55,091 nt of DNA from a virus. Its lineage: Duplodnaviria; Heunggongvirae; Uroviricota; Caudoviricetes. Under the pieces are notes generated by a model, which saw only the letters and a program-made list of their open reading frames with translations, searched no databases and was not told where the DNA came from. The DNA is taken from the IMG/VR virus record IMGVR_UViG_3300046820_001896; one strand, given 5' to 3'. Below, one piece after another: positions 3,323 through 41,495 of this stretch. How positions within the stretch are numbered: the stretch's first letter is position 1; every line of letters starts with the position of its first letter. The translations under genes were made by a program, and so were the position numbers.

Positions 3323-4960
3323 ATGGCTTTTTTAGGGTCTACTGGTGGAAATATTAGAAACAGCGGAAGGGGTGGTTTCCACCCTGGAGTTGGTCCGCAA
3401 GATATTAACTATCCAGTTTCTGTAAGTACTGGCACAGAGTTGCAATCACCAATTAATGGATTGCAACTTAGAATCAACCCATCTCAAGATTTGTGGACTA
3501 CATATCAAAATTTGCCAGCTTTTTTAACTGGTATTGGTAAAGTTACGTCTACTGTTATTAATGAAACAGATAGTGGCACATTCACCGTAACACAACCGTG
3601 TCGTGTTTGGTTACTTAGATCACCATCATGGAATGCTGTAGATGTTTCAGCATATACATTACATTCTACTTTAAATAGCGTTGGTATTGATGCATCTAAT
3701 ACATCAATCTATTATCGTGATGTTACACCAGGTACATATCCGTATGACAATAATTCAGCAATGTACATTTGGTCATTCGACAATCCTGTCTCAGAAGTAA
3801 GCGGTACATTAGGTACTACTGTTGTTAATGGAACAGGTGATACTACTGCTAACGTAAGTTCAACAAGAATTTCTGGACAACGTGGAACGATTGATCCATT
3901 CCACAATGGACCAGTAACATATTCTATTTCTTCTGGTGCTCTTCCCCCTGGTTTTACATTAAATTCCTCAACAGGTCAAATTACTGGTACATACACAGCA
4001 TCTGGTATCAATACTGATGGTCAAGTTTATAACTTTACTGTTCGTGCTACTGATAATTCTCCAGGAGCTAAATCAACATCTGATAGATCATATTCAGTTA
4101 CACTAAGTGTGCCTTGGTTATATCGTCAAATCATTACAACAATGTATATGGTTGGTGGATATAAAGACTCTACAGCATGGTCAAACTCTAATCGTTTTCC
4201 TCGTTCTACTGAAACATGTACTAACTTAGGAGATGGTTTAATTGATAACTATAATTATAAATCTGGCATGTGTAGCGACACATATGGATATGTGTTTGGT
4301 GCTGGTGGAGGACATTCTACTGCATTAAATACTACATCAAGAACAAACATTCGTACAGAAGCAAAAGCATCAAATCCTGGTGGTCCAGGATTCAATTGTG
4401 GAGATACTGGCACTGCATTCGCTCCAGATCGTAATAGATCATTTACTGTTGGTGGCGGTGTAAATAACTGTTTTAGATTCACTGCATCAAGCGAATCTTT
4501 TTCAACATTAGGTGGTGGTCAGGGTTCAGAAGCTAGTGCAATTTCTGGAGAAAATAAAGGTATTTTCTGGGGAAGTGCTAATAGATCAATTAACTTTTCT
4601 ACTGAAGCACAAGCCACAATTAGTCTTGCTGCTAGCGCACATCACCAACAAAAAGGTTTATCTTCTAAAGTTAATTTAGGTTATGCTGGTAATGAAGGTA
4701 CTTGGAACGGTGGTTATAATTGGCGTAAAACTAATATTGTCAATGAATCATATGGTACAATCACTAAAGCTCTTGCAAATTGCGGTGAAGAAAATTATGC
4801 AATGTCACAAGATAGAGGTTATATCTTAGGTGAGTATAACGGTGCACAGAATAATAACTGTGGTAGAGTAATTTACGCTACAGATGCTATCGCATCTGGC
4901 TTCACAAGTATTCAAGGACATGGCGGAGCTTCTTCAGGCCATTGTTTCTGGAGAGATTAA
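3323..4960 (+). CDS. Virion accessory protein: putative Ig (He_PIG-like) domain plus C-terminal Kelch-like beta-propeller
   Basis: YSISSGALPPGFTLNSSTGQITG ... YNFTVRATD is a putative Ig motif. The C-terminal part has repeated GY/F-x2-GG blades. Paralog of 4964-6211. Confidence 0.6.
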   Translation: MAFLGSTGGNIRNSGRGGFHPGVGPQDINYPVSVSTGTELQSPINGLQLRINPSQDLWTTYQNLPAFLTGIGKVTSTVINETDSGTFTVTQPCRVWLLRSPSWNAVDVSAYTLHSTLNSVGIDASNTSIYYRDVTPGTYPYDNNSAMYIWSFDNPVSEVSGTLGTTVVNGTGDTTANVSSTRISGQRGTIDPFHNGPVTYSISSGALPPGFTLNSSTGQITGTYTASGINTDGQVYNFTVRATDNSPGAKSTSDRSYSVTLSVPWLYRQIITTMYMVGGYKDSTAWSNSNRFPRSTETCTNLGDGLIDNYNYKSGMCSDTYGYVFGAGGGHSTALNTTSRTNIRTEAKASNPGGPGFNCGDTGTAFAPDRNRSFTVGGGVNNCFRFTASSESFSTLGGGQGSEASAISGENKGIFWGSANRSINFSTEAQATISLAASAHHQQKGLSSKVNLGYAGNEGTWNGGYNWRKTNIVNESYGTITKALANCGEENYAMSQDRGYILGEYNGAQNNNCGRVIYATDAIASGFTSIQGHGGASSGHCFWRD

Positions 4961-4963
4961 TAA

Positions 4964-6211
4964 ATGGCATTTTACGGAACTAAAGGCGGAAATAATAGAA
5001 ACAGTGGCCGCGGTGGATTTCACCCTGGAGCGATAACCGATACATCATCGTCTGCACCAGCTGGATCATTAGGAACTGCAACAGTTAGCGGTAGTGGAGT
5101 AGATATTGCCAATACAACTTCCAATTCAGTTTCTGGTCAACGCCAAGTATTTGATCCATGGCATACTGGTATTCAATACTCGGTAGTTTCAGGTTCTCTT
5201 CCTCCAGGATTTTCATTAAACGCATCTACCGGCCAGATTACTGGAACATACTCAGCGTCTGGTATTAATACTGACGGAACTGTTTACAACTTTACTATTC
5301 GTGCATCAGATAATTCTCCTGGTGCAAAAACCACATCTGATCGTTCGTATAGTGTAACGCTTTCAGTGCCATGGTTGTATCGTCAAATCATTACGACAAT
5401 ATACATGGCGGGTGGATATAAGGATTCTACTCTTTGGTCAAACGTTAACAGATTTCCAAGATCAACAGAAACATGTACTAATCTAGGCGATGGTAATATT
5501 GATAACTACCACTATAAGTCTGGTATGTGTGATGAAAATCGTGGCCACGTTTGGAATGGTAATACTACTACTACATTCAATATGCGAACAGAATCCAAAG
5601 TAAATGGAGTAGGTGCACCTGGTTATGCTTGTACAAATACAGGTACAACATTCGCGCCTGATCGCAATAGATCATTTACAACTGGTGAAGGTGTAAATAC
5701 TATGTTTAGGTTTACAGCTAGCACAAACTCATTTGCTAATTTGGGTGGTGGCAACGATGGTCATGCAACAGGAATATCTGGAGAAAATAAAGGCATCTAT
5801 TGGGGTCATGGCGGTACTAACCAAAATCGTAGAATAGATTTTAGTACAGAAGCGCAAGCTACTATTGGTATGGCTGGTGGAGCACACGGTCAACAAAAAG
5901 GAATGTCTGCAAAAACTGGTTTTGGCTATGGAGGTAATGAAGGTACGTATGCTGGTGGCTACAACTTTAGAAAAACTAATATTACCAACGAATCATATAG
6001 TACTGTTGCAAAAATGTGGGGTAATTGCGGTGAAGAAAACATGGGTATGTCACAAGATCGCGGTTACATAATTGGACAATACGATGATAGTATTGGTCAA
6101 AATAACAGATGCGGTAGACACATTTATGCAACTGATGCAGGAGCACAATTAAGTACAGAAGTACAAGGACACGCAGGAGCTTCTTCAGGACATTGTTTCT
6201 GGAGAAACTAA
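4964..6211 (+). CDS. Virion accessory protein, paralog of 3323-4960 (Ig-like plus propeller)
   Basis: Shares the N-terminus RNSGRGGFHPG, the Ig domain, the YRQIITT...GGYKDS block and the C-terminal GASSGHCFWR. Lacks the ~130 aa insert of the upstream copy. Confidence 0.6.
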   Translation: MAFYGTKGGNNRNSGRGGFHPGAITDTSSSAPAGSLGTATVSGSGVDIANTTSNSVSGQRQVFDPWHTGIQYSVVSGSLPPGFSLNASTGQITGTYSASGINTDGTVYNFTIRASDNSPGAKTTSDRSYSVTLSVPWLYRQIITTIYMAGGYKDSTLWSNVNRFPRSTETCTNLGDGNIDNYHYKSGMCDENRGHVWNGNTTTTFNMRTESKVNGVGAPGYACTNTGTTFAPDRNRSFTTGEGVNTMFRFTASTNSFANLGGGNDGHATGISGENKGIYWGHGGTNQNRRIDFSTEAQATIGMAGGAHGQQKGMSAKTGFGYGGNEGTYAGGYNFRKTNITNESYSTVAKMWGNCGEENMGMSQDRGYIIGQYDDSIGQNNRCGRHIYATDAGAQLSTEVQGHAGASSGHCFWRN

Positions 6212-6217
6212 TAAATA
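6210..6217 (+). promoter_or_regulatory. Possible T4-type late promoter (AATAAATA)
   Basis: One mismatch to TATAAATA. Lies directly after a stop codon and about 40 nt upstream of the 6255 ATG. Confidence 0.4.
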
Positions 6218-6254
6218 GTATTAGCTAAATAATTTTTTTGTTAAAGGTAAAAAA

Positions 6255-7163
6255 ATGACTGATGTAGTAGAATATGGAAAATACAAGTATGAAAATTTCT
6301 TCCCTAAAAAGAAAATTTCAACTGATCTTTCTTTAATTCCAAAAAAATCCCAAGAATTACTAGAGTTTTCTTATAACAACTATTGGAGTACTCCAAAGTT
6401 CAAGCTTAAGTGGTTTGTGGGCCAAGCTGAATATACTCCATTCCATATTGTTCGTCAATACCTATTAGAACTTCGTGCTCGCGAAGATTCTTTAGAGTTG
6501 CAAGAATACGAACTTAACAAAATTAAAATCGAATTAAAGATGGCTATTCGTGATCGTGACGAATGCCAAGACGAATTACTTAAAGAAATGTTAGATCTAG
6601 AAGTAAAGAAGAAAACTAATGGAGTTGCTTCAACACAATCTAGAGTAAAAGATCTTTATATTGAACGTCAGTTTTTCTTAGAGTTAGTAGAAGAATTTTT
6701 GAATGGTCCTCATGGTAAAACACCAGATGGTCGTCCACTAACTGAAGTTCTTGGCACTGAAGAAGAAGAAAAATACGAACGCGAATATTGGACAGTTCGT
6801 TTAGCTCGCCAAGCAGCTATGGATCTATGTGCTTATGGACGTATTGGTTCAGGTAACTTAGACGCTATTATGCAACTTGGACCTGAGCAAAGGGAAGAAA
6901 CTCTTGCATTGGCACACACTGTCAACTTAGCAGTTGAACAACAACAAGTCAATATAAGACAAGAAGCTGCAAAAGCATTGCAATTAACTAATGATGGTAA
7001 ATTAAATTATATCGGTTCATTAGATCCACAGTTGATTAATAATGCTATTAACGCAGATTTAGAATTAATTAATGCAGCTAGCGCAAAATTAAATTTAAAT
7101 AATAATCCTTCTATTCCTGAACCTACTTTGCCAAAAGAATTCAATGAAATTTATAACGTTTGA
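6255..7163 (+). CDS. Conserved phage coiled-coil protein of unknown function
   Basis: Helical E/L/K-rich central segment, with motifs TPFHIVRQYLLEL and EYWTVRLARQAAMDL..GRIGSGNLDAI. I recall such proteins next to propeller-type fibre genes in aquatic T4-like phages (unverified). Confidence 0.55.
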   Translation: MTDVVEYGKYKYENFFPKKKISTDLSLIPKKSQELLEFSYNNYWSTPKFKLKWFVGQAEYTPFHIVRQYLLELRAREDSLELQEYELNKIKIELKMAIRDRDECQDELLKEMLDLEVKKKTNGVASTQSRVKDLYIERQFFLELVEEFLNGPHGKTPDGRPLTEVLGTEEEEKYEREYWTVRLARQAAMDLCAYGRIGSGNLDAIMQLGPEQREETLALAHTVNLAVEQQQVNIRQEAAKALQLTNDGKLNYIGSLDPQLINNAINADLELINAASAKLNLNNNPSIPEPTLPKEFNEIYNV

Positions 7164-7860
7164 AAAAAGCGAATATGAAATAGGTCTATTGAGACAATTC
7201 AAACATAGACCTTTGACTAGTTTTTGGACATATGATGTGTATCAAATCGAAGAAGATACACATCTTTTTCCAAAAGAATTGCAAGATATTTTAATTGAAA
7301 TTCCAGAGAGTATTGCTAGAGGATCTATGTTTTCACACATAGATTTAAATCAACGAAATACTATGAATGTCAAAGTAGAACAGTTTGCATTCGAATGGGT
7401 AAAAGATTCTCTTGATATACCAAAAAGTAAGAAGTTAAATCCAAGAGATAAATTCACTTATACGATAACAGAACAAGACGAAAAAGATTCTGTTGAATTT
7501 ATTAAAACCGTGTTGTTAGATTATTTGCAAAAACATTACAATTCTCTTTCTGACGGCAACAAAATAAGATACAATAAAAAGATTAATGGCATTAAAACTG
7601 CCATACAAGAATGTAAAACTAACTATGATTGTCATGTGATAATGCACAATCATTTTAATTATCCGCTATTAGTAGTAAAAGATAAACTTGGAACTTCTTT
7701 ACCTGGTGCTAGATGGAATTTATCAACACCATCTAAGAAAACTGAGGTTTCGTATTTCACTCCAGAAATGCTTGATACTGGACCTACTATAGATAATATT
7801 AGTCCAACAGTATTTGAACTAAAATGGGAAATTGGTGAACCAGTATTAGTTAATCTGTAG
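7144..7860 (+). CDS. Hypothetical protein
   Basis: 238 aa ORF overlapping the upstream stop, suggesting operon coupling. No recognisable motif. Confidence 0.6.
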   Translation: MKFITFEKSEYEIGLLRQFKHRPLTSFWTYDVYQIEEDTHLFPKELQDILIEIPESIARGSMFSHIDLNQRNTMNVKVEQFAFEWVKDSLDIPKSKKLNPRDKFTYTITEQDEKDSVEFIKTVLLDYLQKHYNSLSDGNKIRYNKKINGIKTAIQECKTNYDCHVIMHNHFNYPLLVVKDKLGTSLPGARWNLSTPSKKTEVSYFTPEMLDTGPTIDNISPTVFELKWEIGEPVLVNL

Positions 7861-7879
7861 CAATATATAATTTTATAGG

Positions 7880-9565
7880 ATGAGTATAGTGACTCCCAAA
7901 AAAATCTTCAGTATTCCAATCAATCCTAAGCTTTCGCAAGAAGAGTTTACGGCATTTTATCATTGGTTAGATCAGTACAAAGACTGGATAGCCGATGTAT
8001 ATTTCACTTCTAGAATTAACCCGTTCAATCAAGACGCAATGGGTGAAGTCATCATGTTTAATCAAGATAAGGTAAATCTTATTGAGACAGCATTAAACAT
8101 TCAAAAATATCTTGGTATTAAAGCATCAGCTACATTTAATAATATCCAAGTACCTCCAACACAAACCAATTTAGATACTTTCATCATTAACTTTAAACCG
8201 TTATATGATGCAGGTATTAGAACTGCGACCATCCCTCACACGCATTGGATGGCTACTGGTCAAATTAAAGCTGCATTCCCAGAATTATATGTTAAAAATA
8301 CTATTCTAAGAAATGTTAGACGACCAGCAGAAGTAGTTGCTTTAGCTAAAGAAGGTTTTGACTATATCAATTTAGATCGTGATTTAATGCGAGATAAAGA
8401 TGCATTGATACGATTACAAGATGCTAAAAAATGGATTAAGACAAATCTAAATAAAGATATTCATTATAGCTTATTAGCGAATGAAGGTTGTTTAGGCGAG
8501 TGCCATATGATGGACGAACATTTCGAATATAATAATACTCGAAATGACAAAGATCCTTCATATTTTAATTCTGCAATCAGTAGAGTTAGTTGTCCAAAAT
8601 GGGACGTTGAAGATCCTGCTGTTTATTTAAAGACTGCAAACTTCTCTCCTTGGAAATCAGATTGGGATGAATACTTAAAATTAGGAATTGACGTATTTAA
8701 AATGCATGGTCGTGAAAGTATTCAACGATTAGGCGAGACTATGCGCAAAGTAGAACGTTACGTTGCTAATGAAGAAGTTTTAGATGATAATTTTAAAGAC
8801 TTTATCGACAAAGCACAATTAACGGGTAAACCTATTAATATCTGGCGTGATAAGATTCGTAATTGTAAATTTGATTGCTGGGAATGTCAATACTGTGATA
8901 AGATCGAAGAAAAAAAAGACGAATACGATTATACTGCATTGACAAAGCATGTAGTAGATTCTATTGCTAAGAGCGGTATTCCAAAAGTTAATATCAATAT
9001 TAGTGGTTTAACAAGTTCTCGCGTTCAAACTTTATTAAACACTTTAGCTTCACAATGTGGTTCTTATTTAGAAGTTGGTTCATATTTAGGTGCAACTGCT
9101 GCAGCTGTATTACACAATAATCCTATCAATGCGTATTTCGTAGATAAGTGGGAAGAACAAATTCAACCTGCACGTGATGACATGCAAACTCAAGCAAATG
9201 ATTACGAAACATTTGCACAAAATATTACTCCTTATATCGGTAACTCTAATGTTAAAGTTTTAAAAGGAGATATGTTAGGAATTGATTTATTAGAAATAGA
9301 TCATACTATTGATATGTTTATGTACGATGGTCCGCACGATGTTAAGTCTACTGCGAATGCATTAAAATATTATTGGCCTAAACTATCTAAAGATTGTATT
9401 TTAGTGTTTGATGATGCAAACTGGGAATCAGTATTACAAGGCGCAAGAGAAGCATTACAAGAATTAGATGCACATGTAGTATATGAAAAACTTATTTTAA
9501 ATTCTGAAGAAAATCCTAGAGAGTGGTGGAATGGATTGTATATTGTGGTTATTAGGAAAACATGA
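7880..9565 (+). CDS. U32-family (UbiU/TrhP/RlhA-like) Fe-S protein fused to a class I SAM methyltransferase (Methyltransf_24-like)
   Basis: N-domain has LLANEGCLGECH, SCPKW and FKMHGRE (equivalent to U32 KIEGR), then CKFDCWECQYC. C-domain has motif I YLEVGSYLGAT and MFMYDGPH, plus LVFDD. Confidence 0.7.
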   Translation: MSIVTPKKIFSIPINPKLSQEEFTAFYHWLDQYKDWIADVYFTSRINPFNQDAMGEVIMFNQDKVNLIETALNIQKYLGIKASATFNNIQVPPTQTNLDTFIINFKPLYDAGIRTATIPHTHWMATGQIKAAFPELYVKNTILRNVRRPAEVVALAKEGFDYINLDRDLMRDKDALIRLQDAKKWIKTNLNKDIHYSLLANEGCLGECHMMDEHFEYNNTRNDKDPSYFNSAISRVSCPKWDVEDPAVYLKTANFSPWKSDWDEYLKLGIDVFKMHGRESIQRLGETMRKVERYVANEEVLDDNFKDFIDKAQLTGKPINIWRDKIRNCKFDCWECQYCDKIEEKKDEYDYTALTKHVVDSIAKSGIPKVNINISGLTSSRVQTLLNTLASQCGSYLEVGSYLGATAAAVLHNNPINAYFVDKWEEQIQPARDDMQTQANDYETFAQNITPYIGNSNVKVLKGDMLGIDLLEIDHTIDMFMYDGPHDVKSTANALKYYWPKLSKDCILVFDDANWESVLQGAREALQELDAHVVYEKLILNSEENPREWWNGLYIVVIRKT

Positions 9566-11091
9566 TTAAGAAAATAAAAAACATTGTTATTTTTGGTGGT
9601 GGTACTAGCGGTTGGCTAACTGCTGCTTATATCACTAATCAATTAAACTTTCCATGTAATATTACATTGATTGAAAGTAAAACAATTGGACCTATTGGAG
9701 TTGGTGAAGGTACTCAACCATTTACATCTAGATTTTTGTGGAAAGCAGGATTATCTCCAAAACAATGGATGAAACCCGCACAAGCTGCATTTAAATATGG
9801 AGTATTATTAGACGGTTGGAATAAAGAACCATATTTCGTAGACAATGATTTTATTGAGAATCACATTATAGGTCCTGAATTATATGCACATGACTATTTT
9901 ATTAATAAACCAAATAAAGAGTTTGTAGAATGGTTACCTGCTTATAGATTAGCAATGGCAAATAAAAGCCCTAAACTCGATGGATATGATCACTGTTTAT
10001 CTCAACGATCTTATGAAGATTGGGGTGCAGTGCATTTTTCTGCGTTTGATATCTTAGATACTATTCATGATTTAATTAAAGATAGAATCACATATTTTGA
10101 TACTAAAATTATTGATATTAAAAGTAATGATGATGGTATTGAATATTTGCTAGATGAACAAGACAGAAAACATACTGCTGATTTATTCATCGATTGCACA
10201 GGATTTGAAGCAAAATTAATTAGTAAAGAATTAAATGTTCCATTTGTTGACATATCAAATATTTTGCCATGTGATAGTGCTGTTGCTATGCCTACACAAT
10301 TTAAAGACCCTAAAAACGAATGCCATCCATATACAAAAGCAACTACTATGACTGCTGGTTGGAGATGGACAATTCCAACATTTAAACAAATTGGCAATGG
10401 TTATGTTTATTCATCGAAGCATATTACACCTGAACAAGCTGAAAAAGAATTAAGAGATAGTATTGGTGAATATGATGCAAAAGCTAGACATGTGAAGATG
10501 CGCTGTGGTGCATCTGAAAAAGTTGCTCATAAGAACGTTATTGCTGTAGGTTTATCTGCTGGTTTCGTAGAACCATTAGAAGCAACTGGTATTACGTTCA
10601 CAACAAAAATAGTTGAATCTTTGTGTGCTGGTTTAAATTTCCACAATGGTGTATGGAATGATAATTTACAAGTAGCATTTAATACTGCTTATATCAATAT
10701 GGTAACTGAAATCATTTCATTTGTATGGGCTCATTATCATTATAGCGATAGAGCTGATACACCATTTTGGCAAGAAATTAGAAACCAAAAAATAGAACAT
10801 GCGCCCGAATACGTTCAAGAAATTTTTAGACAATTCTATCCAAAATTACATAGAAATTTTTATTTAGATGATAAGACATCTGGTTTCCATACCGGTCATT
10901 GGTTTAGTATGCTACATGCAAATGATGCATATAAAGATAAAGAAAAATATGAGTTAAGCGAAGAACAGTTGAAATATGCAGAGTACTATATTAAGACTAA
11001 AAAATCTGAGATAGATAATGCTATAGAGTATTTCCCAAATCATTATGAATTTTTGAAGGATTGGTATGCGAGAACCGGTGACGCTGTTTAG
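9562..11091 (+). CDS. Flavin-dependent halogenase, tryptophan halogenase (PrnA) family
   Basis: FAD motif GGGTSGW, IGVGEGT, putative catalytic Lys in AAFKYG, halogenase signature WRWTIP, and GFVEPLEATG. Confidence 0.85.
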   Translation: MIKKIKNIVIFGGGTSGWLTAAYITNQLNFPCNITLIESKTIGPIGVGEGTQPFTSRFLWKAGLSPKQWMKPAQAAFKYGVLLDGWNKEPYFVDNDFIENHIIGPELYAHDYFINKPNKEFVEWLPAYRLAMANKSPKLDGYDHCLSQRSYEDWGAVHFSAFDILDTIHDLIKDRITYFDTKIIDIKSNDDGIEYLLDEQDRKHTADLFIDCTGFEAKLISKELNVPFVDISNILPCDSAVAMPTQFKDPKNECHPYTKATTMTAGWRWTIPTFKQIGNGYVYSSKHITPEQAEKELRDSIGEYDAKARHVKMRCGASEKVAHKNVIAVGLSAGFVEPLEATGITFTTKIVESLCAGLNFHNGVWNDNLQVAFNTAYINMVTEIISFVWAHYHYSDRADTPFWQEIRNQKIEHAPEYVQEIFRQFYPKLHRNFYLDDKTSGFHTGHWFSMLHANDAYKDKEKYELSEEQLKYAEYYIKTKKSEIDNAIEYFPNHYEFLKDWYARTGDAV

Positions 11092-11674
11092 AGCAGATTT
11101 ATTTAGTTATTCAAACGTAGGAACGCCTGAACAAAGGCAAGAATTAATTGATCGTTTACTAGCTCTGAAAGCATCAGGAGCTAGAGATATCAATGAACTA
11201 ACAAATAATGAAGGATGTTGGAGATATTCATATCCAGTAAAAGATTGTGATTGGCTAAATCATGCTCTTTCAGTTATTATGTCAGATGCATTTGAATATT
11301 ACGGAAATCAACCTGGAAGTAGAATTAGATTACCTAGTGAAAAAGATAAAATCTCAATAGGTAGTTGGTGTAATATCAATGAGAAGTATTCTCGTAATGT
11401 ATATCACTCTCATAAAGGTTCTATTTTTTCATGTGTGTATTATCTTCAAGCAACCGATACAGGTAAACTAGTATTATCTAATCCTGCAAACGTATTGAAT
11501 GATTGCAGTAACTTTTCTCCATACACAAGAGACTTTTTCTTTTTACCAAAAGATGGTGATTTAGTGCTTTGGCCTTCATGGATTCCGCATGAAGTAGAAC
11601 CTAATATGTCTGATCGTCAGCGTATTAATATAGTATTTGATATTGATGTTCCATTTATCTATGAACCAAAATGA
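11066..11674 (+). CDS. 2OG-Fe(II) oxygenase superfamily protein (TIGR02466-like)
   Basis: Metal motif HSH (NVYHSHKGS), SCVYY, distal His in WPSWIPHEV, and RINIVFD. Confidence 0.8.
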   Translation: MREPVTLFRADLFSYSNVGTPEQRQELIDRLLALKASGARDINELTNNEGCWRYSYPVKDCDWLNHALSVIMSDAFEYYGNQPGSRIRLPSEKDKISIGSWCNINEKYSRNVYHSHKGSIFSCVYYLQATDTGKLVLSNPANVLNDCSNFSPYTRDFFFLPKDGDLVLWPSWIPHEVEPNMSDRQRINIVFDIDVPFIYEPK

Positions 11675-12152
11675 AGAATTATTTGCTGTACAAATTTTTA
11701 CTGGCAAAATAACACTAACCGAAAAAATTATACAAGATTATTTGAAATGGTTAGAAATCCAAAAGTTATTGGAAGAAGACGTTAGTAATATAAGCACTAC
11801 TATCAATGGTTGGCAATACGCATTTAAACATAGCGATACTCAACCTGAATGGCACAAATCGATTGTGTCACAAATCGATGCCGATTTTCATTTAAAAGAC
11901 AAAAGTAGTTGGATTGTTGACTATGATATTGGCGGATATCAAGATCCGCATATTCATAGAAGTAGTCATGGTACTATGATAATCAATTTAGTTGGTAGCG
12001 GAGATTTATTATTATATGACACTAGACCAACGGGTGGATTTGAAGTTAAAACTTTGAACGCAGGAGATTGGATATATATTCCAGGTTGGTTGATGCATTC
12101 TAGTCGACCATGCAAAGAAAAACGAAGTATATTAGTGATTGATTATAGATGA
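11661..12152 (+). CDS. Cupin / 2OG-Fe(II) oxygenase-like protein
   Basis: QDPHIH ... IPGWLMHSSRP ... RSILV pattern. The start is placed at ATG 11661, overlapping the upstream gene, rather than at 11637. Confidence 0.7.
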   Translation: MNQNEELFAVQIFTGKITLTEKIIQDYLKWLEIQKLLEEDVSNISTTINGWQYAFKHSDTQPEWHKSIVSQIDADFHLKDKSSWIVDYDIGGYQDPHIHRSSHGTMIINLVGSGDLLLYDTRPTGGFEVKTLNAGDWIYIPGWLMHSSRPCKEKRSILVIDYR

Positions 12153-12925
12153 CGAAGATTGAATTTTTTTCTAGCATTGATGGAGTAGCAGATTCTACTC
12201 CTATTTTAGAGGCGAAAGAATACCAACCATTTTGGTTTAATGAGTGTAAAGCTGATTATATAGATCAACTTAATGCAGCAAATGGTGGAACATTTGCACA
12301 CACTTATAGATGTCCAGGAATATTTGATCTTTACAAAAATGGATTTTTTGTAACTGCATGGTGTGATATTAAAATAGAAACAAATGGAGATCCAAATTAT
12401 TTTAAGTGGACTTTACCTAATGTAAATTTAGTAGAGTATATGGATAAGGCAGAAAATAGTCCAATTTTACAAGAACATTCTTTTAATGGTATTGCAAAAC
12501 ATCTTCCTATTCCACCAAACACACTTAGATCAATTATTAAAATTAACACTCCTTGGCATGTTATGGCGCCAAAAGGTGTAAAGTTTATGGTATTACCTGT
12601 GCCATATTCAAATAATTTTACATTTACACACTCGACTGGAATATTGGATCCAAGCGTTTCTTCAGCACTGAATTGTCAATTATATTGGCATCAACTTAAT
12701 GGTTCATATACAATTAAAGCTGGAACTCCTCTTTCGTATATTATACCATTAACGGAGAAAAAGTATAAGTTTGAATGTAGAGATAAAAATGCTAGAGATG
12801 AATTGTGGTTAAAGAAAAAAGAATTTCTTAAAAATTTTACTTTCACATTTAAACGTACTGCTATGAAATCTGCGTATGATAAACATAATGAATCGAAGTG
12901 CCCATTTTCAAGGCTATTTAAATGA
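12149..12925 (+). CDS. Conserved phage protein, beta-rich (DUF6065-like, tentative)
   Basis: CPGIFDL..GF..TAWCD, IKINTPW, GILD and IKAGTPL motifs. I recall this family next to phage oxygenase genes. Confidence 0.45.
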   Translation: MTKIEFFSSIDGVADSTPILEAKEYQPFWFNECKADYIDQLNAANGGTFAHTYRCPGIFDLYKNGFFVTAWCDIKIETNGDPNYFKWTLPNVNLVEYMDKAENSPILQEHSFNGIAKHLPIPPNTLRSIIKINTPWHVMAPKGVKFMVLPVPYSNNFTFTHSTGILDPSVSSALNCQLYWHQLNGSYTIKAGTPLSYIIPLTEKKYKFECRDKNARDELWLKKKEFLKNFTFTFKRTAMKSAYDKHNESKCPFSRLFK

Positions 12926-13272
12926 CAATATATCAAACAATTATTGCCTGTATAATTACAGGCATTTTAGTTTTTGTAGTTTACAAACATGTTGGGTTTG
13001 AAGCTATAAAAAACTGCTATGGAATGTGGTTCACACGTAAGTATTGGACTAACTATAACATAGTAGAAGCTCTATCATGGGGCACAAAAGCGGTCATCAT
13101 TGTCCCAGGTTTAATATTTGGAATTCAAATTTGGTGGTTATACTTCTTAACACTCGCTACAAGTCTTACATTGATTTGGGCAAGTAATAAAAAGTTATTG
13201 CCAACTCTTGTGGCTTTCAATACTCTTTGGACTTGGATTAGCGTGATGGTCTTAGTTAAATCGTTAGTTTAG
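12922..13272 (+). CDS. Small integral membrane protein (about 4 TM segments)
   Basis: Several long hydrophobic stretches. ATGA overlap with the upstream gene. Confidence 0.6.
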   Translation: MTIYQTIIACIITGILVFVVYKHVGFEAIKNCYGMWFTRKYWTNYNIVEALSWGTKAVIIVPGLIFGIQIWWLYFLTLATSLTLIWASNKKLLPTLVAFNTLWTWISVMVLVKSLV

Positions 13273-13281
13273 AGGTAAATT

Positions 13282-14319
13282 ATGGACTTCGTTCTAAATG
13301 TTCTATTAAAGAACATCGATTATCTCTGGATGGTATTCTTCATTATGATCTCTGCGGGACTAGCAAAACAGTATCAACTTTTTGCCCCTGCTTATGCCTA
13401 TGTTAAGAATACATTCAGAAGCAACAAGTTCGTAGTCGTACTACTTAGTGCTATTGGTGGCGTACTCCCAATTGAGGGAAGAGTTACTGTTAGTGCGGGT
13501 CTTCTTGACACCGTGGCTCCTAAAAGTGGTCCTGGTAGAGAGAAGATGGGTATTGTAGACTACTTAGCAACACACCACTATTACATGTGGTCCCCGCTTG
13601 AAAAGACTGTTATTATCCCAATTGCTGCATTTGGTTTAACTTATGCTGCTTGGATTGGAATGATTTGGCCTTTGATTGCAATTAGTTTAATCTTCATCTA
13701 TTGGTATATTTGGCAAAAGGTTAAAGATGATGAAATCGCTATCACACCTGGCAACTTTAAGATATCTGCAGTTGCTCGCGGTGTAGTTCCCATGTTTGCT
13801 GCTATCGCAGCTTATATTGCAGGAGTAAACTTCATAGCGTGTTTTGGATTCTTAACACTTTACTATATGTTTGTGACTCAGCAATGGGACATTAAAAAGC
13901 TATTAGGTTATGTGAATTGGAAAGTGTTGATTATTGTTGGTATCGCTATTATGGCTGGTAACTACTTTAAATCACAAAGCGCTTTCTTTGAAGCCATGAT
14001 TAAAGGCAGTATGTTAGATCCTACTACTTTTATCGGTATGGCAATACTCAGCGCATTAAGCTTTGTGTTCGCATTCTTGATGGGATCTAGTGGTAAGTTT
14101 GTGGCTTTAGCTGTGTTAACAGCACAAGCTTTTGGTCCACAATACTTCTTATGGTTCTTTGCGATTGATTATGCTGGTTACCTATTATCTCCCACTCACA
14201 AGTGTGTGATGGTTGGTAATACGTATTTTGGCACTCCACTAAAAACTTACTATGCTGCTCTCGGAGCGTGGTCAGTGTTATTGGTTGCAGTAGCTGGTGT
14301 TTTTACTTTTTTAATTTAA
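13282..14319 (+). CDS. Multi-pass membrane permease-like protein (DUF401 / ion-transporter superfamily-like)
   Basis: About 10 hydrophobic segments. GGVLPIEG, HHYYMWSPL and GYLLSPTHKC resemble DUF401 motifs as I recall them (e.g. SPxHxC). Confidence 0.6.
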   Translation: MDFVLNVLLKNIDYLWMVFFIMISAGLAKQYQLFAPAYAYVKNTFRSNKFVVVLLSAIGGVLPIEGRVTVSAGLLDTVAPKSGPGREKMGIVDYLATHHYYMWSPLEKTVIIPIAAFGLTYAAWIGMIWPLIAISLIFIYWYIWQKVKDDEIAITPGNFKISAVARGVVPMFAAIAAYIAGVNFIACFGFLTLYYMFVTQQWDIKKLLGYVNWKVLIIVGIAIMAGNYFKSQSAFFEAMIKGSMLDPTTFIGMAILSALSFVFAFLMGSSGKFVALAVLTAQAFGPQYFLWFFAIDYAGYLLSPTHKCVMVGNTYFGTPLKTYYAALGAWSVLLVAVAGVFTFLI

Positions 14320-14331
14320 GTTTAAATGCAT

Positions 14332-14362
14332 AAAAATGGGGGCCTTGGGTCCCCATTTTTTT
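14332..14362. terminator. Intrinsic terminator, probably bidirectional
   Basis: AAAAATGGGGGCC-TTG-GGTCCCCATTTTT stem with A and T tracts on the flanks. Confidence 0.85.
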
Positions 14363-14391: not shown

Positions 14392-14829
14392 ATGAATAAA
14401 CTCGTAGAACAATTACGCAAAGTCTTAGCATCTAATTTTACACTATATCTTAAAACTCAAATGTTCCATTGGAACGTAGAAGGTCCTCATTTTAGTGACT
14501 ATCATGAATTTTGGGCAGACGTCTATACAGACTTATATGAACAAAACGATTTATTAGCAGAATTTATTAGACAGTCAAATGAGTATGCTCCAGGATCATT
14601 AGAAGTTTATAAAGAACTTTCTTTAATTCAAGACGAAGAAGGTTTTCCTAAAGCTAAAGAAATGTTTTCTCGTTTCTTGAGCAATAATGATGTAATGATT
14701 ACATTATATAATCAATTATATAAACTTGCAGAAGAATCAGAAGAATATCAGATTTCTGATTTTTGTGCTCAACGTTTAGCAGCACATAAAAAACATGCAT
14801 GGATGGTTCGTTCTATCCTAAAGGACTAA
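14392..14829 (+). CDS. dps: Dps / ferritin-like DNA-protection protein
   Basis: HWNVEGPHF..YH and D..AE ferroxidase-centre pattern, C-terminal KHAWM, and GGAG Shine-Dalgarno. Confidence 0.9.
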   Translation: MNKLVEQLRKVLASNFTLYLKTQMFHWNVEGPHFSDYHEFWADVYTDLYEQNDLLAEFIRQSNEYAPGSLEVYKELSLIQDEEGFPKAKEMFSRFLSNNDVMITLYNQLYKLAEESEEYQISDFCAQRLAAHKKHAWMVRSILKD

Positions 14830-16636: not shown

Positions 16637-19600
16637 ATGGCAAAGCAAATATTAAATACTGGTACATCAAATAACGATAAGAGCGGTGATACTCTTAGAG
16701 CTGGTGGTCTTAAGATCAAAGCCAACTTTAATGAAATCTATGCTGCCTTAGCGAATGATGGTTCGAATATCTCTGGCGGTGATTTATTAAAGACTGGTAG
16801 TTATACAGATTTACGTAATCTTCCAGATTTCCATCCTATTTCTACTAGCGGTAGTTTTAATGACTTAGAAGATAAACCTGAATTATCTACATTTGTTGCT
16901 GCGCCTTTAACGCTTGCTGGTATCGAAGGCAACACGACAGGTCAAATCGCTGCTGATGATAATTATGTTTATGTTTGTACTACTGACTGGGTTGAAGCTG
17001 ATACTTATTCTCCATTAACATTTGTGCATGAAGACAACCTTGTTGATTATTTGTTAGTTGCTGCGACAAGCGACGTTGCTTCTACTGTTGTTTTAAAACC
17101 TGGAACAATTGCGCCTGAAGTTGACTTCACTATTACAGACGGTTCAGTTACTAGAACTATCACATTAGTAACTGAGATCGGTGATGGTCAAGGTGGAGTT
17201 TGGTATGAATGTACATTAGACGGTGAATTTACTAGCGTAGCAAACACACAATATAAAATTGAATTTGCCCCTGTTGCTGGAGATTTTGCTGCTCACTTTA
17301 CATGGAATGGTGCATTCCAACCATTAGTTGATGCGCACGCTCAAGGCACATTAGCTGCAAAACTATTTAAGAGCGGTGATAATACTGGTCGAGTAATTAC
17401 TCACGCTGTTCGTGATTCAATTTCTAACGAATTGACTATTACATATACTGGTCCACAGTTTACAAGTTTTACTGGTATGTCCATCGTTGAAGATCAACCA
17501 ATTATTTGGAAGCGTATTCCATTAAATGTTGCTGCCGATAGATTAGTTAATGGTGATTTCGAAATTACTATCAATTCAAATGGTGGATTAACATTCCCAG
17601 ATGGCACAACTCAAACAACTGCTTACACTGGCGAAGCTGGTATTACTAAGTTCGTTGCAGTAAATAATGACGGAGTTATTAGTGGTTCTGACGATGGTAT
17701 TACTTGGAATGAATATACAAGTAACTTAAGCAACATTAATCGTGTTGCTGTTGGTCCAAATAAAATTGTTTATATTGCAGACAGTTCTGATGGTCAAGGC
17801 AACGATCAATCTTTATGGCATGCTGACACTTATGATACACAACCAATTGAAGTTACATCTCTTTCAACAAGAGGATTTTTGGAAGTAAAATATTTTAAGA
17901 GTATTTCTAAGTTTGTTGCTGTGGGTAATGATGGAGATGGTAATCCATCACTATACTACAGCGACGATGGTATTGATTGGATAGGGTCATCTGTAGATCC
18001 AACATATTTACAAACAGTAGTCGATTATACAGGTGCTTCATTCCGTGATATTGCAGAAAATGAATTAGGTTTCTTTGTCATATCTGGTAATAAAACACTT
18101 GGTGGTTTCTTCCTTTCAGACATTACAGATACGATGAATGGAGATAATCATGTAGATTTATCATATTTGTCTGATCATCCGGATGAAGTTGTATGGGCAA
18201 ATTCATTCTATTTCCAAGGTTGGCATCTATTTACTGATGATGATATAGCTACGGAAGCTTGGTGTTATAATAGCGAAAGTAACCCAACTGTAGGAACTTT
18301 CCAAACTGATTTTATTACACTTGATGGTATATGGGAAAACGAAATCGGTATTCCTGGTGGTTCGCTTAAAGAATTTGCTGTTGGTGATTATGCTGGTATG
18401 TCAGTTATTATGGCATCGACTAATGACGGACAAATCCTTTATTGGCCAACTATTCCTGCAGGTCCATATGTTTCTATTCCAAAACCATATACTGCAACTA
18501 TTACTGATTGGACTAGTTCATCAACTTCTGCTATCACTACAACTGGTGCAACTGGTGGACTTGGCGAAAAGTTTATTGTTACAGGTTCTACTACTGATTA
18601 TAATGGCACATACTATCTTGGAGCTGATGGTGCTGTATTTACAGACAACACTTTAACTACTCCATTCGATACTACAAGTTTAGATCCATTTACAGGAACT
18701 GCAACACTTTCATGGAGTCACGGTCAATATATTGATGCGTTACACTATAATGATGGTGTATTCTATGCTGGTAATGATAATGAAGAGATGTTCAAATCTA
18801 CTAACGGTGGTCAGGTGTGGACAAAAGTAGATCAGCTGGGCGGTGGTTCAGGTGAGGGTGATGGTTACTTAAATGATATCGATTCATATATCTCTAGTGC
18901 TGGAGAAATAACATTCAGCGGTGTACAGATTCGTGGTAAAGCAACTGAAGGTAAAACTGGTTTAATCAAACTTGTTCCAAATACAAATATCGATGAACAC
19001 AGTTTCTTAGATAATGGTCAGTTCGTACAGATTTATCCAACAAATCTATATGATGCTCCACATATTCACATTGCTGCTGGTGTTGGTGCTGCTAGCGAAG
19101 GTGATATTTTCCTTGGCGATGATAATAAACATGTTGAAGTTAATCATAATGGTAATGTAAGTATTCAATCATATAATGATAATACTGAGTATACTTACAA
19201 TTGGAGTTTTAATACAGACGGTAGTATGGAATTCCCTTGGATAGAAACAAATATTCACAATGGCGGAAACCAATTTGCTCAAACTTTAAAATTTGGCAAT
19301 CCTAATCAACAAGTAATTATTACTGGTCCTACTCCAGAAGAAAACCAAAATGCTGAACGCATAATCATTCAAGGTCAAAGAGGTCTTGGATCTGGTGAAG
19401 GTGGAGATGTTTATCTTTGGGCTGGCGACACTGATGGTACTAACGGTGGAGATATTAAGATTTATGCTGGTGATGCAGATCAAAATGATTCAGGTTATGG
19501 TGGTTATGTAAACATTGATGGCGGCCGTGGATTTAATAGCGGTGGTAACGTAGAAATTACTGGTGGTTCATCTCCAGGAGGAAACGGTGGTAATGTTACG

Positions 19601-20509
19601 ATTAGATCTGGTAACGGTTCTAATGATACAACTAACGGTGCAGTTTTCATTGAGACTACTAATAACGTTTGGTCATTCGATAGAACAGGCGTTTTAACAC
19701 TTCCTGTAAATGGAGACATCGTAAATAGCAATGGAACTTCAGTTCTTGGTGGCGGTGGTGCTTCAACAGGTGATTTCACATTCGCTAATGCAGACATCAC
19801 AGTTAATGATAACGCATCATTAACTGTCACTGGAAATACAGTATTCACTGCTACAATTTCTAGCAATATGGGTATGGCTTGGTCAGAGGATAATTCATTC
19901 CTTGGAACATATACATCAGGAAGTATAGGATATTCTGATTTTGGTCAATTTGATGGACAAAAAGTAATTTTCTTTGACAACGTAATGTCAACGAATTTAA
20001 GTACACAATTGAACGCTATGGCGATTGGTGATACTATTCTTGTTGATGATCTTTCTAATCCATATACAGTAACATTAACATCAGTATTCTCTTCTTCGAT
20101 GGGAAGATTTATTGCTTCTGTTACAACACCAGAATCAAATCGTACTGTTACTAACCAAGTAGTAATTACTAGAACTGTTTCAGATACGAATCAATTCCAG
20201 TTCAAAGGTAATGGTGAATTAGTAGCTCCAAAAGTAGTAGTTGCAACTGCATTAGTCATTCCTTCTTATACAATAAGCGAATGTGGATTTGGTCATAATA
20301 CTGTTGCAGGAACTAATGGTGCAATAATTTCTGTTAGCGATTCTGATCAAGATGTTTCTAATCCTAACATGACAGCAGGTTACTATCCTCCAAACATGTT
20401 AGCATATTGGGTTGGTAATATTAATCAAAATCCTTCTCCTGGTCAAGAAGCTGGAGCTTGGGTATACTTACATCAAACTAGTTCTAATTATCACTTAGTA
20501 GGCAATTAA
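16637..20509 (+). CDS. Large fibre / receptor-binding protein with a T4 gp9/gp10-like N-terminal anchor
   Basis: N-terminus MAKQILNTG..NDKSGDTLRAGGLKIKANFNEIY. Also GSYTDL/GSFNDL repeats, Asp-box motifs (SDDGITW, SDDGIDW, STNGGQVW) and Gly-rich GGDV/GGNV repeats. Confidence 0.7.
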   Translation: MAKQILNTGTSNNDKSGDTLRAGGLKIKANFNEIYAALANDGSNISGGDLLKTGSYTDLRNLPDFHPISTSGSFNDLEDKPELSTFVAAPLTLAGIEGNTTGQIAADDNYVYVCTTDWVEADTYSPLTFVHEDNLVDYLLVAATSDVASTVVLKPGTIAPEVDFTITDGSVTRTITLVTEIGDGQGGVWYECTLDGEFTSVANTQYKIEFAPVAGDFAAHFTWNGAFQPLVDAHAQGTLAAKLFKSGDNTGRVITHAVRDSISNELTITYTGPQFTSFTGMSIVEDQPIIWKRIPLNVAADRLVNGDFEITINSNGGLTFPDGTTQTTAYTGEAGITKFVAVNNDGVISGSDDGITWNEYTSNLSNINRVAVGPNKIVYIADSSDGQGNDQSLWHADTYDTQPIEVTSLSTRGFLEVKYFKSISKFVAVGNDGDGNPSLYYSDDGIDWIGSSVDPTYLQTVVDYTGASFRDIAENELGFFVISGNKTLGGFFLSDITDTMNGDNHVDLSYLSDHPDEVVWANSFYFQGWHLFTDDDIATEAWCYNSESNPTVGTFQTDFITLDGIWENEIGIPGGSLKEFAVGDYAGMSVIMASTNDGQILYWPTIPAGPYVSIPKPYTATITDWTSSSTSAITTTGATGGLGEKFIVTGSTTDYNGTYYLGADGAVFTDNTLTTPFDTTSLDPFTGTATLSWSHGQYIDALHYNDGVFYAGNDNEEMFKSTNGGQVWTKVDQLGGGSGEGDGYLNDIDSYISSAGEITFSGVQIRGKATEGKTGLIKLVPNTNIDEHSFLDNGQFVQIYPTNLYDAPHIHIAAGVGAASEGDIFLGDDNKHVEVNHNGNVSIQSYNDNTEYTYNWSFNTDGSMEFPWIETNIHNGGNQFAQTLKFGNPNQQVIITGPTPEENQNAERIIIQGQRGLGSGEGGDVYLWAGDTDGTNGGDIKIYAGDADQNDSGYGGYVNIDGGRGFNSGGNVEITGGSSPGGNGGNVTIRSGNGSNDTTNGAVFIETTNNVWSFDRTGVLTLPVNGDIVNSNGTSVLGGGGASTGDFTFANADITVNDNASLTVTGNTVFTATISSNMGMAWSEDNSFLGTYTSGSIGYSDFGQFDGQKVIFFDNVMSTNLSTQLNAMAIGDTILVDDLSNPYTVTLTSVFSSSMGRFIASVTTPESNRTVTNQVVITRTVSDTNQFQFKGNGELVAPKVVVATALVIPSYTISECGFGHNTVAGTNGAIISVSDSDQDVSNPNMTAGYYPPNMLAYWVGNINQNPSPGQEAGAWVYLHQTSSNYHLVGN

Positions 20510-41446: not shown

Positions 41447-41495
41447 ATACTATGTATTGCAAATATAATGTGTAAATGTGAAAGGTGTCCAAACC

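Follow-up and report, generated by a model that had tools for sequence, protein, structure and literature searches.

The viral record IMGVR_UViG_3300046820_001896 from IMG/VR is a 55,091-nucleotide stretch of Caudoviricetes DNA, referred to here at its full length as the window, that carries the structural and replication genes at the core of a T4-like myovirus genome. Its genes include a tail-fiber gene, two fiber-type genes, gp13, gp14, gp15, terminase, sheath, portal, and capsid, together with UvsW, gp46/47, the clamp loader, and DNA polymerase. Flanked by the pair of fiber-type genes on one side and by gp13/gp14 on the other lies a cassette of nine plus-strand open reading frames (ORFs), O1 to O9, that spans positions 6255-14319 and is the subject of this analysis (Table 1). 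The sequence-only reading of this DNA had described nine co-oriented, mostly overlapping ORFs running from a late-like motif to a strong terminator, and both parts of that description hold. Six of the eight ORF junctions overlap, by 4 to 38 nt, and at the remaining two the ORFs lie 19 and 9 nt apart, while a late-promoter-like AATAAATA precedes the unit and a stable stem closes it. WATAAATA occurs eight times in the window, each time on the plus (coding) strand and in several cases just ahead of structural genes, a distribution that fits T4-type late promoters driving a structural block of single orientation. The count of sigma-70-like promoters in the window is at chance level (49 versus 48.1), the consensus terminator scanner missed the terminator behind O9, and Rfam and tRNA scans of the 55-kb window returned no RNA element and no tRNA gene. 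We infer that the cassette is one late transcription unit, presumably co-transcribed and late in timing.

Table 1. Features of the window treated in the text; positions are counted from its first nucleotide.
Feature	Position	Strand	Description	Matches and remarks
p1417a	3323..4960	+	Fiber-type protein, 545 aa, Gly/Ser/Thr/Asn-rich, He_PIG Ig-like domain	phrog_1417 1.2e-36; He_PIG 4.6e-8; tail ...SSGHCFWRD
p1417b	4964..6211	+	Fiber-type protein, 415 aa, paralog of p1417a	phrog_1417 1.5e-28; He_PIG 1.6e-7; tail ...SSGHCFWRN
AATAAATA	6210..6217	+	Late-promoter-like motif	Consensus match; overlaps stop codon of preceding gene; 38 nt 5' of first ATG
O1	6255..7163	+	302 aa, Leu/Glu/Lys-rich, helical; cyanophage T4-GC353	phrog_1409 2.1e-34
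O2	7144..7860	+	238 aa, poorly conserved	In 23/80 loci at 22-97% identity
O3	7880-9565	+	Two-domain protein	Structure model pLDDT 77
O3, N-terminal domain	7880..8929	+	Cys-rich TIM barrel, remotely U32-like (TrhP/RlhA)	
O3, C-terminal domain	8972..9565	+	Predicted cation-dependent class I O-methyltransferase, COMT/CCoAOMT/TrmR type	
O4	9562..11091	+	Predicted flavin-dependent halogenase, 509 aa	Trp_halogenase PF04820, 318.6 bits vs cut-off 21, E 9e-95, residues 7-455
O5	11066..11674	+	TIGR02466/2OG-FeII_Oxy_5 DSBH oxygenase	PF13759, 63.6 bits vs cut-off 27, 2.4e-17
O6	11646..12152	+	Short DSBH/cupin paralog of O5	phrog_81 4.6e-8; ATG 11646, alternative TTG 11637
O7	12149..12925	+	dUTPase-fold protein, Syn9 gp43 family	phrog_7084; invariant Cys55; model pLDDT 86
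O8	12922..13272	+	Hydrophobic protein, 116 aa	Only in the window's own subclade (9/80 loci)
Hairpin within O8	12945-12964		Perfect 8-bp palindrome	T run on either strand
O9	13282..14319	+	Polytopic DUF401 permease, ion-transporter superfamily type	PF04165, 28.8 bits vs cut-off 24, 1e-6
Intrinsic terminator	14332..14360	+	13-bp stem, A run before, U run after	-18.6 kcal/mol, z -2.94
TATAAATA	14362		Motif of the ferritin/Dps-like gene	
Ferritin/Dps-like gene	14392-14829	+	Between cassette terminator and gp13	PF00210 7.7e-23; phrog_3636 'DNA binding protein'
1290-aa protein	16637-20509		Between gp14 and gp15	No PHROG match
Major capsid protein	30635-32023			
CobS-like ATPase	41478-42641		AAA_5/CbbQ_C	

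O3 joins a cysteine-rich barrel to an O-methyltransferase, for which the sequence-only reading had used the name U32-methyltransferase. The methyltransferase part of that name stands. Methyltransf_24 (PF13578) matches the C-terminal domain at 42.8 bits against a cut-off of 26.3 (1e-10) and is present in all 21 members of the family, and by VIA fold comparison the domain scores Z 17.4 to MeT1, 16.1 to SpnH, and 15.4 to TrmR, with Foldseek matching COMTs. The residues that are invariant in the alignment (E398-x-G400-x3-G404, D422, D483, and D511-D512-A-N514) fit what we take to be motif I for S-adenosylmethionine (SAM) and an acidic/Asn metal-ligand pattern. Across the whole protein, the best sequence match in the PDB is TrmR/YrrM, and it is weak (E 0.011).

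The U32 part of the name survives only as a remote relationship. Profile and fold comparisons suggest that the barrel is U32-like, and we do not file it as a member of the U32 family. Pfam U32 (PF01136) has no match at E<=10 in 21 O3 family members and 10 distant homologs, and a related viral contig is also negative. The barrel family contains 394 representatives at 50% identity, many of them stand-alone proteins of 330-450 aa, and no Pfam family matches it. By hhalign, an 85-sequence barrel profile matches TrhP (87%, P 4e-6) and RlhA (54%, P 1.3e-4), as well as an alignment of four U32 sequences (84.5%), but neither UbiU nor UbiV on its own; the controls TpiA, MetF, FsaB, HisA, HisF, YhbW, and PflC, which are barrels and a radical SAM protein, all gave P>=0.058. 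The modeled fold reaches Z 13.9 to the U32 protein Mk0906 (5d88; 199 residues, root-mean-square deviation 4.6), level with MTHFR (14.6) and SleL (14.1), and a 'Peptidase U32' cluster of AFDB ranks 23rd among its fold matches. In TrhP, E162, C170, and C177 of the U32 signature E-x7-C-x6-C are all essential (PMC6599085). O3 does not keep this signature, as it has an invariant E202-G-C204-x3-C208 in which the residues are present and the spacing is altered. In total, seven cysteines of the barrel are invariant (C204, C208, C238, C329, C333, C336, and C339), in two loops whose pLDDT falls below 50 and which are not placed in the model, and the stretch FKMHGRE (274-279) aligns with U32 fKIEGR only in a low-confidence part of the alignment.

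A scan of genome contigs for cellular homologs of the barrel gave only two contigs of metagenome-assembled genomes (MAGs), at 52-57% identity and probably viral, and U32 was not found in those two MAGs nor in 31 relatives. A literature search on U32 proteins and cyanophages gave no relevant paper and no description of a phage U32-like/O-methyltransferase family. Distant stand-alone homologs of the barrel occur in several other settings. One adjoins a tail assembly chaperone gene. Another, of 446 aa, follows a 988-aa tailspike-like protein on a 58-kb phage contig (L086 8001-10526) and is immediately followed by a heme oxygenase and a ferredoxin-dependent bilin reductase, and a homolog on a cellular contig sits beside an S8 peptidase and Calx-beta surface proteins.

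On its sequence O4 is an intact flavin-dependent halogenase, with GxGxxG (G12-G13-G14-x-S16-G17), K78 in FKYG, GWRWTIP, and E337-P-L-E340 all preserved. Within GWRWTIP, W267, T270, I271, and P272 are invariant, and the position of the second W holds W or F in the clade. Its PDB matches include 8fov (6e-71) and VirX1 (9e-52), and only BrvH (6frl) and 9luq align over the full length; VirX1 covers residues 188-501, and alignments to the Trp 5-, 6-, and 7-halogenases stop near residue 410-450, apparently short of the module that binds free L-Trp in PrnA/RebH-type enzymes. VirX1 itself, from phage Syn10, iodinates many unnatural substrates and has a spacious, accessible site; a native substrate is not known for it (PMC8407142).

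The two genes that follow encode putative oxygenases of the double-stranded beta-helix (DSBH) fold. The conserved residues are H114, H116, H175, and R186 in O5 and H102, H104, H151, and R160 in O6, and both proteins therefore carry H-x-H...H plus Arg, not HxD/E...H. We describe them as three-His DSBH oxygenases by sequence, with 2-oxoglutarate (2OG) use putative. The Pfam oxygenase score of O6 is 14 bits, below the cut-off, and its cupin matches are weak. O7 is of another kind. By VIA, its top 22 fold matches all belong to the dUTPase/dCTP-deaminase superfamily (Z 9.7-5.4), and the next, unrelated, match scores 4.8. The protein is 37% identical to Syn9 gp43 and is a conserved neighbor of phage halogenases. 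The dUTPase Pfam has no match at E<=1 in 22 O7 family members, and by eye only a motif-I-like CPGIFDL and a motif-III-like GILD are recognizable of the five catalytic dUTPase motifs. Prediction of a complex between O4 and O7 gave a score of 0.00, which counts neither for nor against an interaction. Two other assignments of O7 were rejected: cupin or oxygenase by the dUTPase-like fold, and DUF6065 because PF19541 gives no match and the link came only from Atlas language-model neighbors. Of the chemistries proposed from the sequence, the halogenase, the O5 oxygenase, the methyltransferase, and the DUF401 protein are confirmed by Pfam, and it is O7 as an oxygenase that falls.

The remaining ORFs are less informative. 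O1 has no Pfam or Atlas match and corresponds to Syn19_045 and PHM2_100, and O2 has no match in Pfam, PHROG, NCBIfam, or Atlas. O9 also matches TIGR00529 at 4e-11, with a score of 42.8 against an equivalog cut-off of 378, and its homologs carry PF04165 and sit in the same phage cassette. Where it occurs, O9 keeps an identity of ~70%, against 40-55% for the other cassette proteins of those loci, and with its higher identity and the deviant base composition described below, the O8/O9 pair looks like a separately moving sub-module. The scanner lists a terminator on both strands at the hairpin in the 5' part of O8; it may attenuate transcription within the unit before the membrane-protein genes are reached, or be there by chance.

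Comparison with related loci shows what holds the cassette together and where its parts come from. At least 197 relatives of O3 are present in IMG/VR, and 80 were taken with 10-kb flanks for locus counts. O1 is a constant companion of O3, found at 78 of these loci, followed by the halogenase at 73, O5 at 69, O7 at 61, O2 and O6 at 23 each, O9 at 20, and O8 at 9. By these last two counts the permeases are not core. The synteny check proposed with the sequence-only reading showed that the order O1-O3-O4-O5-O7 is kept in most of the 80 contigs; it is the commonest gene order (34 loci), and the full nine-gene order occurs at 9 loci, only in the window's own subclade. The core order is kept at 50-60% identity with conserved overlaps between O3 and O4 (45/73), O4 and O5 (53/69), and O5 and O7 (39/58). 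Because order and overlaps persist at this divergence, the cassette genes do not assort freely in this lineage. On a tree of 79 distinct O3 sequences, which includes halogenase-free clades from a second scan seeded with distant O3, halogenase presence changes once, separating a 60-member clade that has the gene from a 19-member sister group that lacks it.

Two modules can be told apart. Module A consists of the fiber-type protein, O1, and O3, which are T4-GC351, T4-GC353, and T4-GC354 of cyanophages, and module B of the halogenase, the dUTPase-fold protein, and the DSBH oxygenases, which form the VirX1 cluster of Syn9 and Syn10. Among complete genomes of cultured phages, those of P-HM2 and Syn19 encode the O3 module but not a single halogenase, and in both of them GC351, GC353 (O1), and GC354 (O3, 43-45%) follow a tail fiber gene. 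Syn9 and S-RIM44 have two or three halogenases and no O3. An O7 homolog lies directly beside the halogenase in Syn9, Syn10, S-RIM44, P-TIM40, and S-CREM1, followed by TIGR02466-type oxygenases, and module B is placed between tail-fiber or 'tail fiber assembly' genes and gp13. The cassette is a fusion of these two modules, which are found apart in four cultured phages, and it is syntenic across the 60-member uncultured clade.

Reports of halogenase and 2OG-oxygenase genes in marine phage genomes go back to 2005. The dioxygenase-halogenase cluster gp41-gp54 of Syn9 was described by Iyer, Abhiman, de Souza, and Aravind in 2010, with halogenated secondary metabolites proposed as its products (PMC2938197), and a halogenase-containing phage cluster was given a secondary-metabolite reading again in 2021 (PMC7824862). 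With halogenase O4, conserved-Cys dUTPase-fold O7, and tandem DSBH proteins O5 and O6, the cassette falls within the Syn9-type definition. It shares with the Syn9/Syn10 cluster, which includes VirX1 (PDB 6QGM), a flavin-dependent halogenase of the Trp-halogenase family, an adjoining conserved-Cys dUTPase-fold protein, TIGR02466-type DSBH oxygenases, and a location between tail-fiber genes and gp13. Syn9, however, has two halogenases and ten oxygenases against one and two here, and O4 is 28-31% identical to the Syn9 pair. The cassette also lacks a JmjC/MINA member, and it has a DUF401 permease and the U32-like/O-methyltransferase module that is absent from Syn9 and S-RIM44. The 2021 cluster combines a halogenase, a 2OG-Fe(II) dioxygenase (2OGFeDO), a cupin-like DSBH protein, and O-methyltransferases, as the cassette does in kind, but it centers on carbamoyltransferases, a HemK-like methylase, and HAD phosphatases, all of which the cassette lacks. 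The suggestion of a single undescribed system does not hold in that form: the cassette fuses two modules that occur separately in cultured cyanophages, of which module B was described in 2010 and 2021; it is such a fusion plus an added permease, of a kind known since 2010.

Module A has its counterpart in the T4-GC351-354 block (PHM2_098-101 in P-HM2 and Syn19_043-046 in Syn19), where a 'sericin-like' fiber-type protein, GC353, and GC354 stand in the same order. The block differs in that its GC351 proteins end in Tyr/Phe-rich tails and not in ...SSGxCxWRD, and in that GC352 is replaced here by the unrelated O2. All of its genes were 'hypothetical' in Sullivan et al. 2010 (PMC3037559). In the available parts of Table S8 of that paper, which covers virion proteomes, neither T4-GC351-354 nor a halogenase is seen; for module A the table is uninformative, because Syn9, one of the three proteome phages, lacks O3.

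For O3, the closest analogy lies outside phages. TrhP and RlhA are U32 proteins for the prephenate-dependent C5 hydroxylation of U34 and C2501, and the ho5U that is subsequently methylated to mo5U in B. subtilis is made through the U32 genes yrrN and yrrO (PMC6599085). The yrrM-yrrN-yrrO set (TrmR with TrhP2/TrhP1) thus pairs a U32-type barrel with a cation-dependent O-methyltransferase in a logic of hydroxylation followed by O-methylation, a pairing that O3 resembles. Unlike these proteins, O3 is one fused chain without a Pfam U32 or Peptidase_U32_C match. Its E-x-C-x3-C contrasts with the E-x7-C-x6-C of TrhP, it has an extra C-x3-C-x2-C-x2-C cluster, and its genomic context is phage fiber genes as opposed to tRNA genes.

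Mean gene G+C content is 0.333 in the cassette against 0.377 (Mann-Whitney p 0.001), in agreement with the by-eye impression that the cassette is AT-richer. The deficit sits at first codon positions (GC1) and, relative to the Gly/Ser/Thr-rich fiber genes, also at second positions (GC2). At third positions (GC3) the cassette equals the neighboring fiber genes, with only O8 and O9 deviating (0.33-0.35 versus 0.18-0.24 in the other cassette genes). A foreign origin, considered on the basis of the low G+C, is rejected on this pattern; since GC3 matches that of the fiber genes, the AT-richness comes from the amino-acid composition of the proteins, not from a recent acquisition. Identity of the major capsid protein is 61-64% to the Pelagibacter phages Mosig and HTVC008M, 61% to Methylophilales phage Melnitz, and lower, at 59%, to cyanophages. 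The cyanomyovirus frame in which the cassette had been placed is thus not established, and because the capsid is closest to pelagimyophage and OM43-phage proteins, a cyanobacterial host is not secured for this phage clade. This capsid affinity also separates the window phage from those that carry the Syn9-type cluster. Megablast of the cassette against 50,697 phage records gave no match.

Several neighboring genes deserve mention. The ferritin/Dps-like gene behind the cassette has its own TATAAATA and keeps the same position in related contigs (L091 and L092); that an iron-storage gene adjoins genes for Fe-S and Fe(II) enzymes may not be coincidence. The counterpart in L091 (689 aa) of the 1290-aa protein has a T4_gp9_10_N domain, and the protein may be a neck- or baseplate-anchored fiber. 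The CobS-like ATPase is a signature accessory gene of marine T4-like phages.

The fiber-type gene is always found upstream of the cassette, and its product is a candidate substrate. p1417a is 30% identical to the cyanophage T4-GC351 'sericin-like' protein. The phrog_1417 proteins of the window (3323-6211) and of the related loci (L001-L080), present in 1 to 3 copies per locus, begin with a conserved sequence, MAFxGxxGGNxRNSGRGGFHPG, and end in a conserved tail, G-x-SS-[GA]-x-x-x-[WHFQ]-R-[DN]. At halogenase-bearing loci they end in ...G-x-SS-[GA]-x-x-x-W-R-[DN], and in the halogenase-free clades, P-HM2, and Syn19 they mostly do not. In raw counts, 67 cases have both halogenase and Trp tail, 14 a halogenase without Trp, 2 a Trp tail without halogenase, and 28 neither. 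When the association is tested on the O3 tree, however, the single state change leaves one independent pair (sign test p 1), and because phylogeny reduces the correlation to one contrast it has no statistical weight. The C-terminal Trp as halogenase substrate was accordingly dropped as evidence and stays a lead.

The reading we prefer, which we hold tentatively and put somewhat short of an even chance, is that the cassette serves late oxidative tailoring of the phage's own fiber-tip proteins; both its chemistry and its substrate are inferred. Late in infection, the enzymes would target aromatic, electron-rich residues (Trp, Tyr, or His) in the fiber-tip proteins encoded upstream, and hydroxyl, methoxy, and halogen groups would be added before or during virion assembly. 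O3 would hydroxylate an sp2 carbon and then O-methylate the new hydroxyl, and the host would supply SAM, prephenate, and, through a flavin reductase, reduced flavin (FADH2), with the variable membrane pair O8/O9 added to the cassette in some lineages. A scaffold-forming enzyme (non-ribosomal peptide synthetase (NRPS), polyketide synthase (PKS), ATP-grasp, or terpene or cyclodipeptide synthase) or a precursor of a ribosomally synthesized and post-translationally modified peptide was found by Pfam, PHROGs, and NCBIfam in none of the nine ORFs, with O1 and O2 unassigned in that search. Because the unit has no NRPS, PKS, ATP-grasp, or precursor-like gene, the substrate must come from elsewhere. 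Fiber tailoring is supported by the location after fiber-type genes, the late-type promoter motif, the terminator, and the overlaps, by the core gene order kept at 50-60% identity, and also by the recurrence of modules A and B beside fiber genes in different phages, by the barrel homologs near a tail assembly chaperone and behind a tailspike-like gene, and by a halogenase that appears to be of the open-site type. The catalytic motifs of O3, O4, O5, and O6 are invariant across the family alignments. Fiber decoration and a small molecule had been set out as alternatives from the start; the fiber-adjacent tailoring unit common to them stands, as tightly coupled tailoring-type enzymes directly behind fiber-type genes, and the Trp-tail test of decoration carries nothing after phylogeny.

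A number of points weigh against fiber tailoring. RNA and quinones, but no proteins, are known as U32 substrates (PMC6599085), the modeled dUTPase fold of O7 points to nucleotides, the O9 permease suggests small-molecule traffic, and published readings of Syn9-type clusters favor a secondary metabolite (PMC2938197, PMC7824862). Conserved order is itself weak evidence of shared function, because T4-like structural regions are syntenic anyway. Eight halogenase-bearing members of the clade carry another residue (H, Q, F, or G) at the position of the tail Trp, and one halogenase-free clade retains a WRD tail. Finally, a distant 506-aa barrel homolog lies in a T4-like replication module (L152 7001-8521; L153 1018-2538) with UvsW on one side, an Sm-like protein, a nucleoside 2-deoxyribosyltransferase, and gp47/46 on the other, and 2OG oxygenases nearby.

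It is possible, if rather doubtful, that the cassette instead tailors a small molecule, with a host-derived aromatic (an indole, phenol, or amino-acid derivative) being halogenated, hydroxylated, and O-methylated, and O9, with O8, transporting the substrate or the product across the membrane. We give no more credence to the accompanying idea that such a compound would serve as an antibiotic, signal, or siderophore-like compound during infection. Tailoring of this type is the published reading of Syn9-type and S-SSM6a-type clusters (PMC2938197, PMC7824862), and O4 is nearest to bacterial small-molecule halogenases, with 8fov its strongest match and BrvH aligned over its full length. A COMT-type methyltransferase fold is typical of small-molecule O-methylation, and a DUF401 permease is present that is more conserved than its neighbors where it occurs. 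On the other hand, the unit lacks a core biosynthetic enzyme, the permease is missing at 60 of the 80 related loci and so is not core, and the unit lies inside a late structural block with a late-type promoter, its two modules both recurring beside fiber genes.

Modification of nucleic acids or nucleotides is improbable. O3 would make a 5-hydroxy and then a 5-methoxy pyrimidine and O7 would bind the nucleotide, and, just as improbably, the halogenase and DSBH oxygenases would have that base position or a deazapurine as their target, leaving the phage DNA or RNA modified. Known phage base-modification genes are not placed, as these are, in a late operon among virion genes, and we know of no flavin-dependent halogenase that acts on nucleotides. 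The missing Pfam dUTPase match of O7, whose motifs are only partly recognizable by eye, the weak TrmR match, and the altered U32 spacing count against it as well. In its favor are the profile matches of the barrel to the RNA C5-hydroxylases TrhP and RlhA, the dUTPase/dCTP-deaminase fold of O7, the barrel homolog beside UvsW and the nucleoside deoxyribosyltransferase, and a best PDB match to TrmR/YrrM, partner of YrrN/YrrO in the mo5U pathway (PMC6599085). Alternatively, the genes may have no common pathway, the slot between fiber genes and gp13 being a tolerated insertion site for independent accessory genes whose order is kept by vertical descent. This is unlikely, although modules A and B do occur apart in complete cultured genomes, the single halogenase change on the O3 tree makes co-occurrence a single historical event, and O6, O8, and O9 come and go, the latter two with a different GC3. 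Against it, the halogenase, dUTPase-fold protein, and TIGR02466-type oxygenase remain neighbors in Syn9, P-TIM40, and this clade at 28-37% identity, start/stop overlaps are conserved, and catalytic residues are under strong constraint.

The analysis shows two separable modules, each found repeatedly behind tail-fiber genes, and a large, abundant uncultured clade of marine T4-like phages that joins both in a compact operon. The question of what they act on is narrowed to three substrate classes, namely a fiber protein, a host aromatic metabolite, or a nucleobase, and cultured phages can be named in which each module occurs (P-HM2, Syn19, and S-RIM2 for A; Syn9, Syn10, and S-RIM44 for B). This bears on VirX1, a sought-after iodinating biocatalyst without a known native substrate or role. 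That a phage edits its own receptor-binding fiber tips with a halogenase, a U32-like oxygen-independent hydroxylase/O-methyltransferase, and DSBH oxygenases is a doubtful proposition as a whole. If it were true, VirX1 and other viral halogenases would have virion proteins as their long-sought native substrates, a U32-type enzyme would for the first time be seen to act on proteins, and halogenation or methoxylation of virion fibers would be a new kind of host-range determinant.

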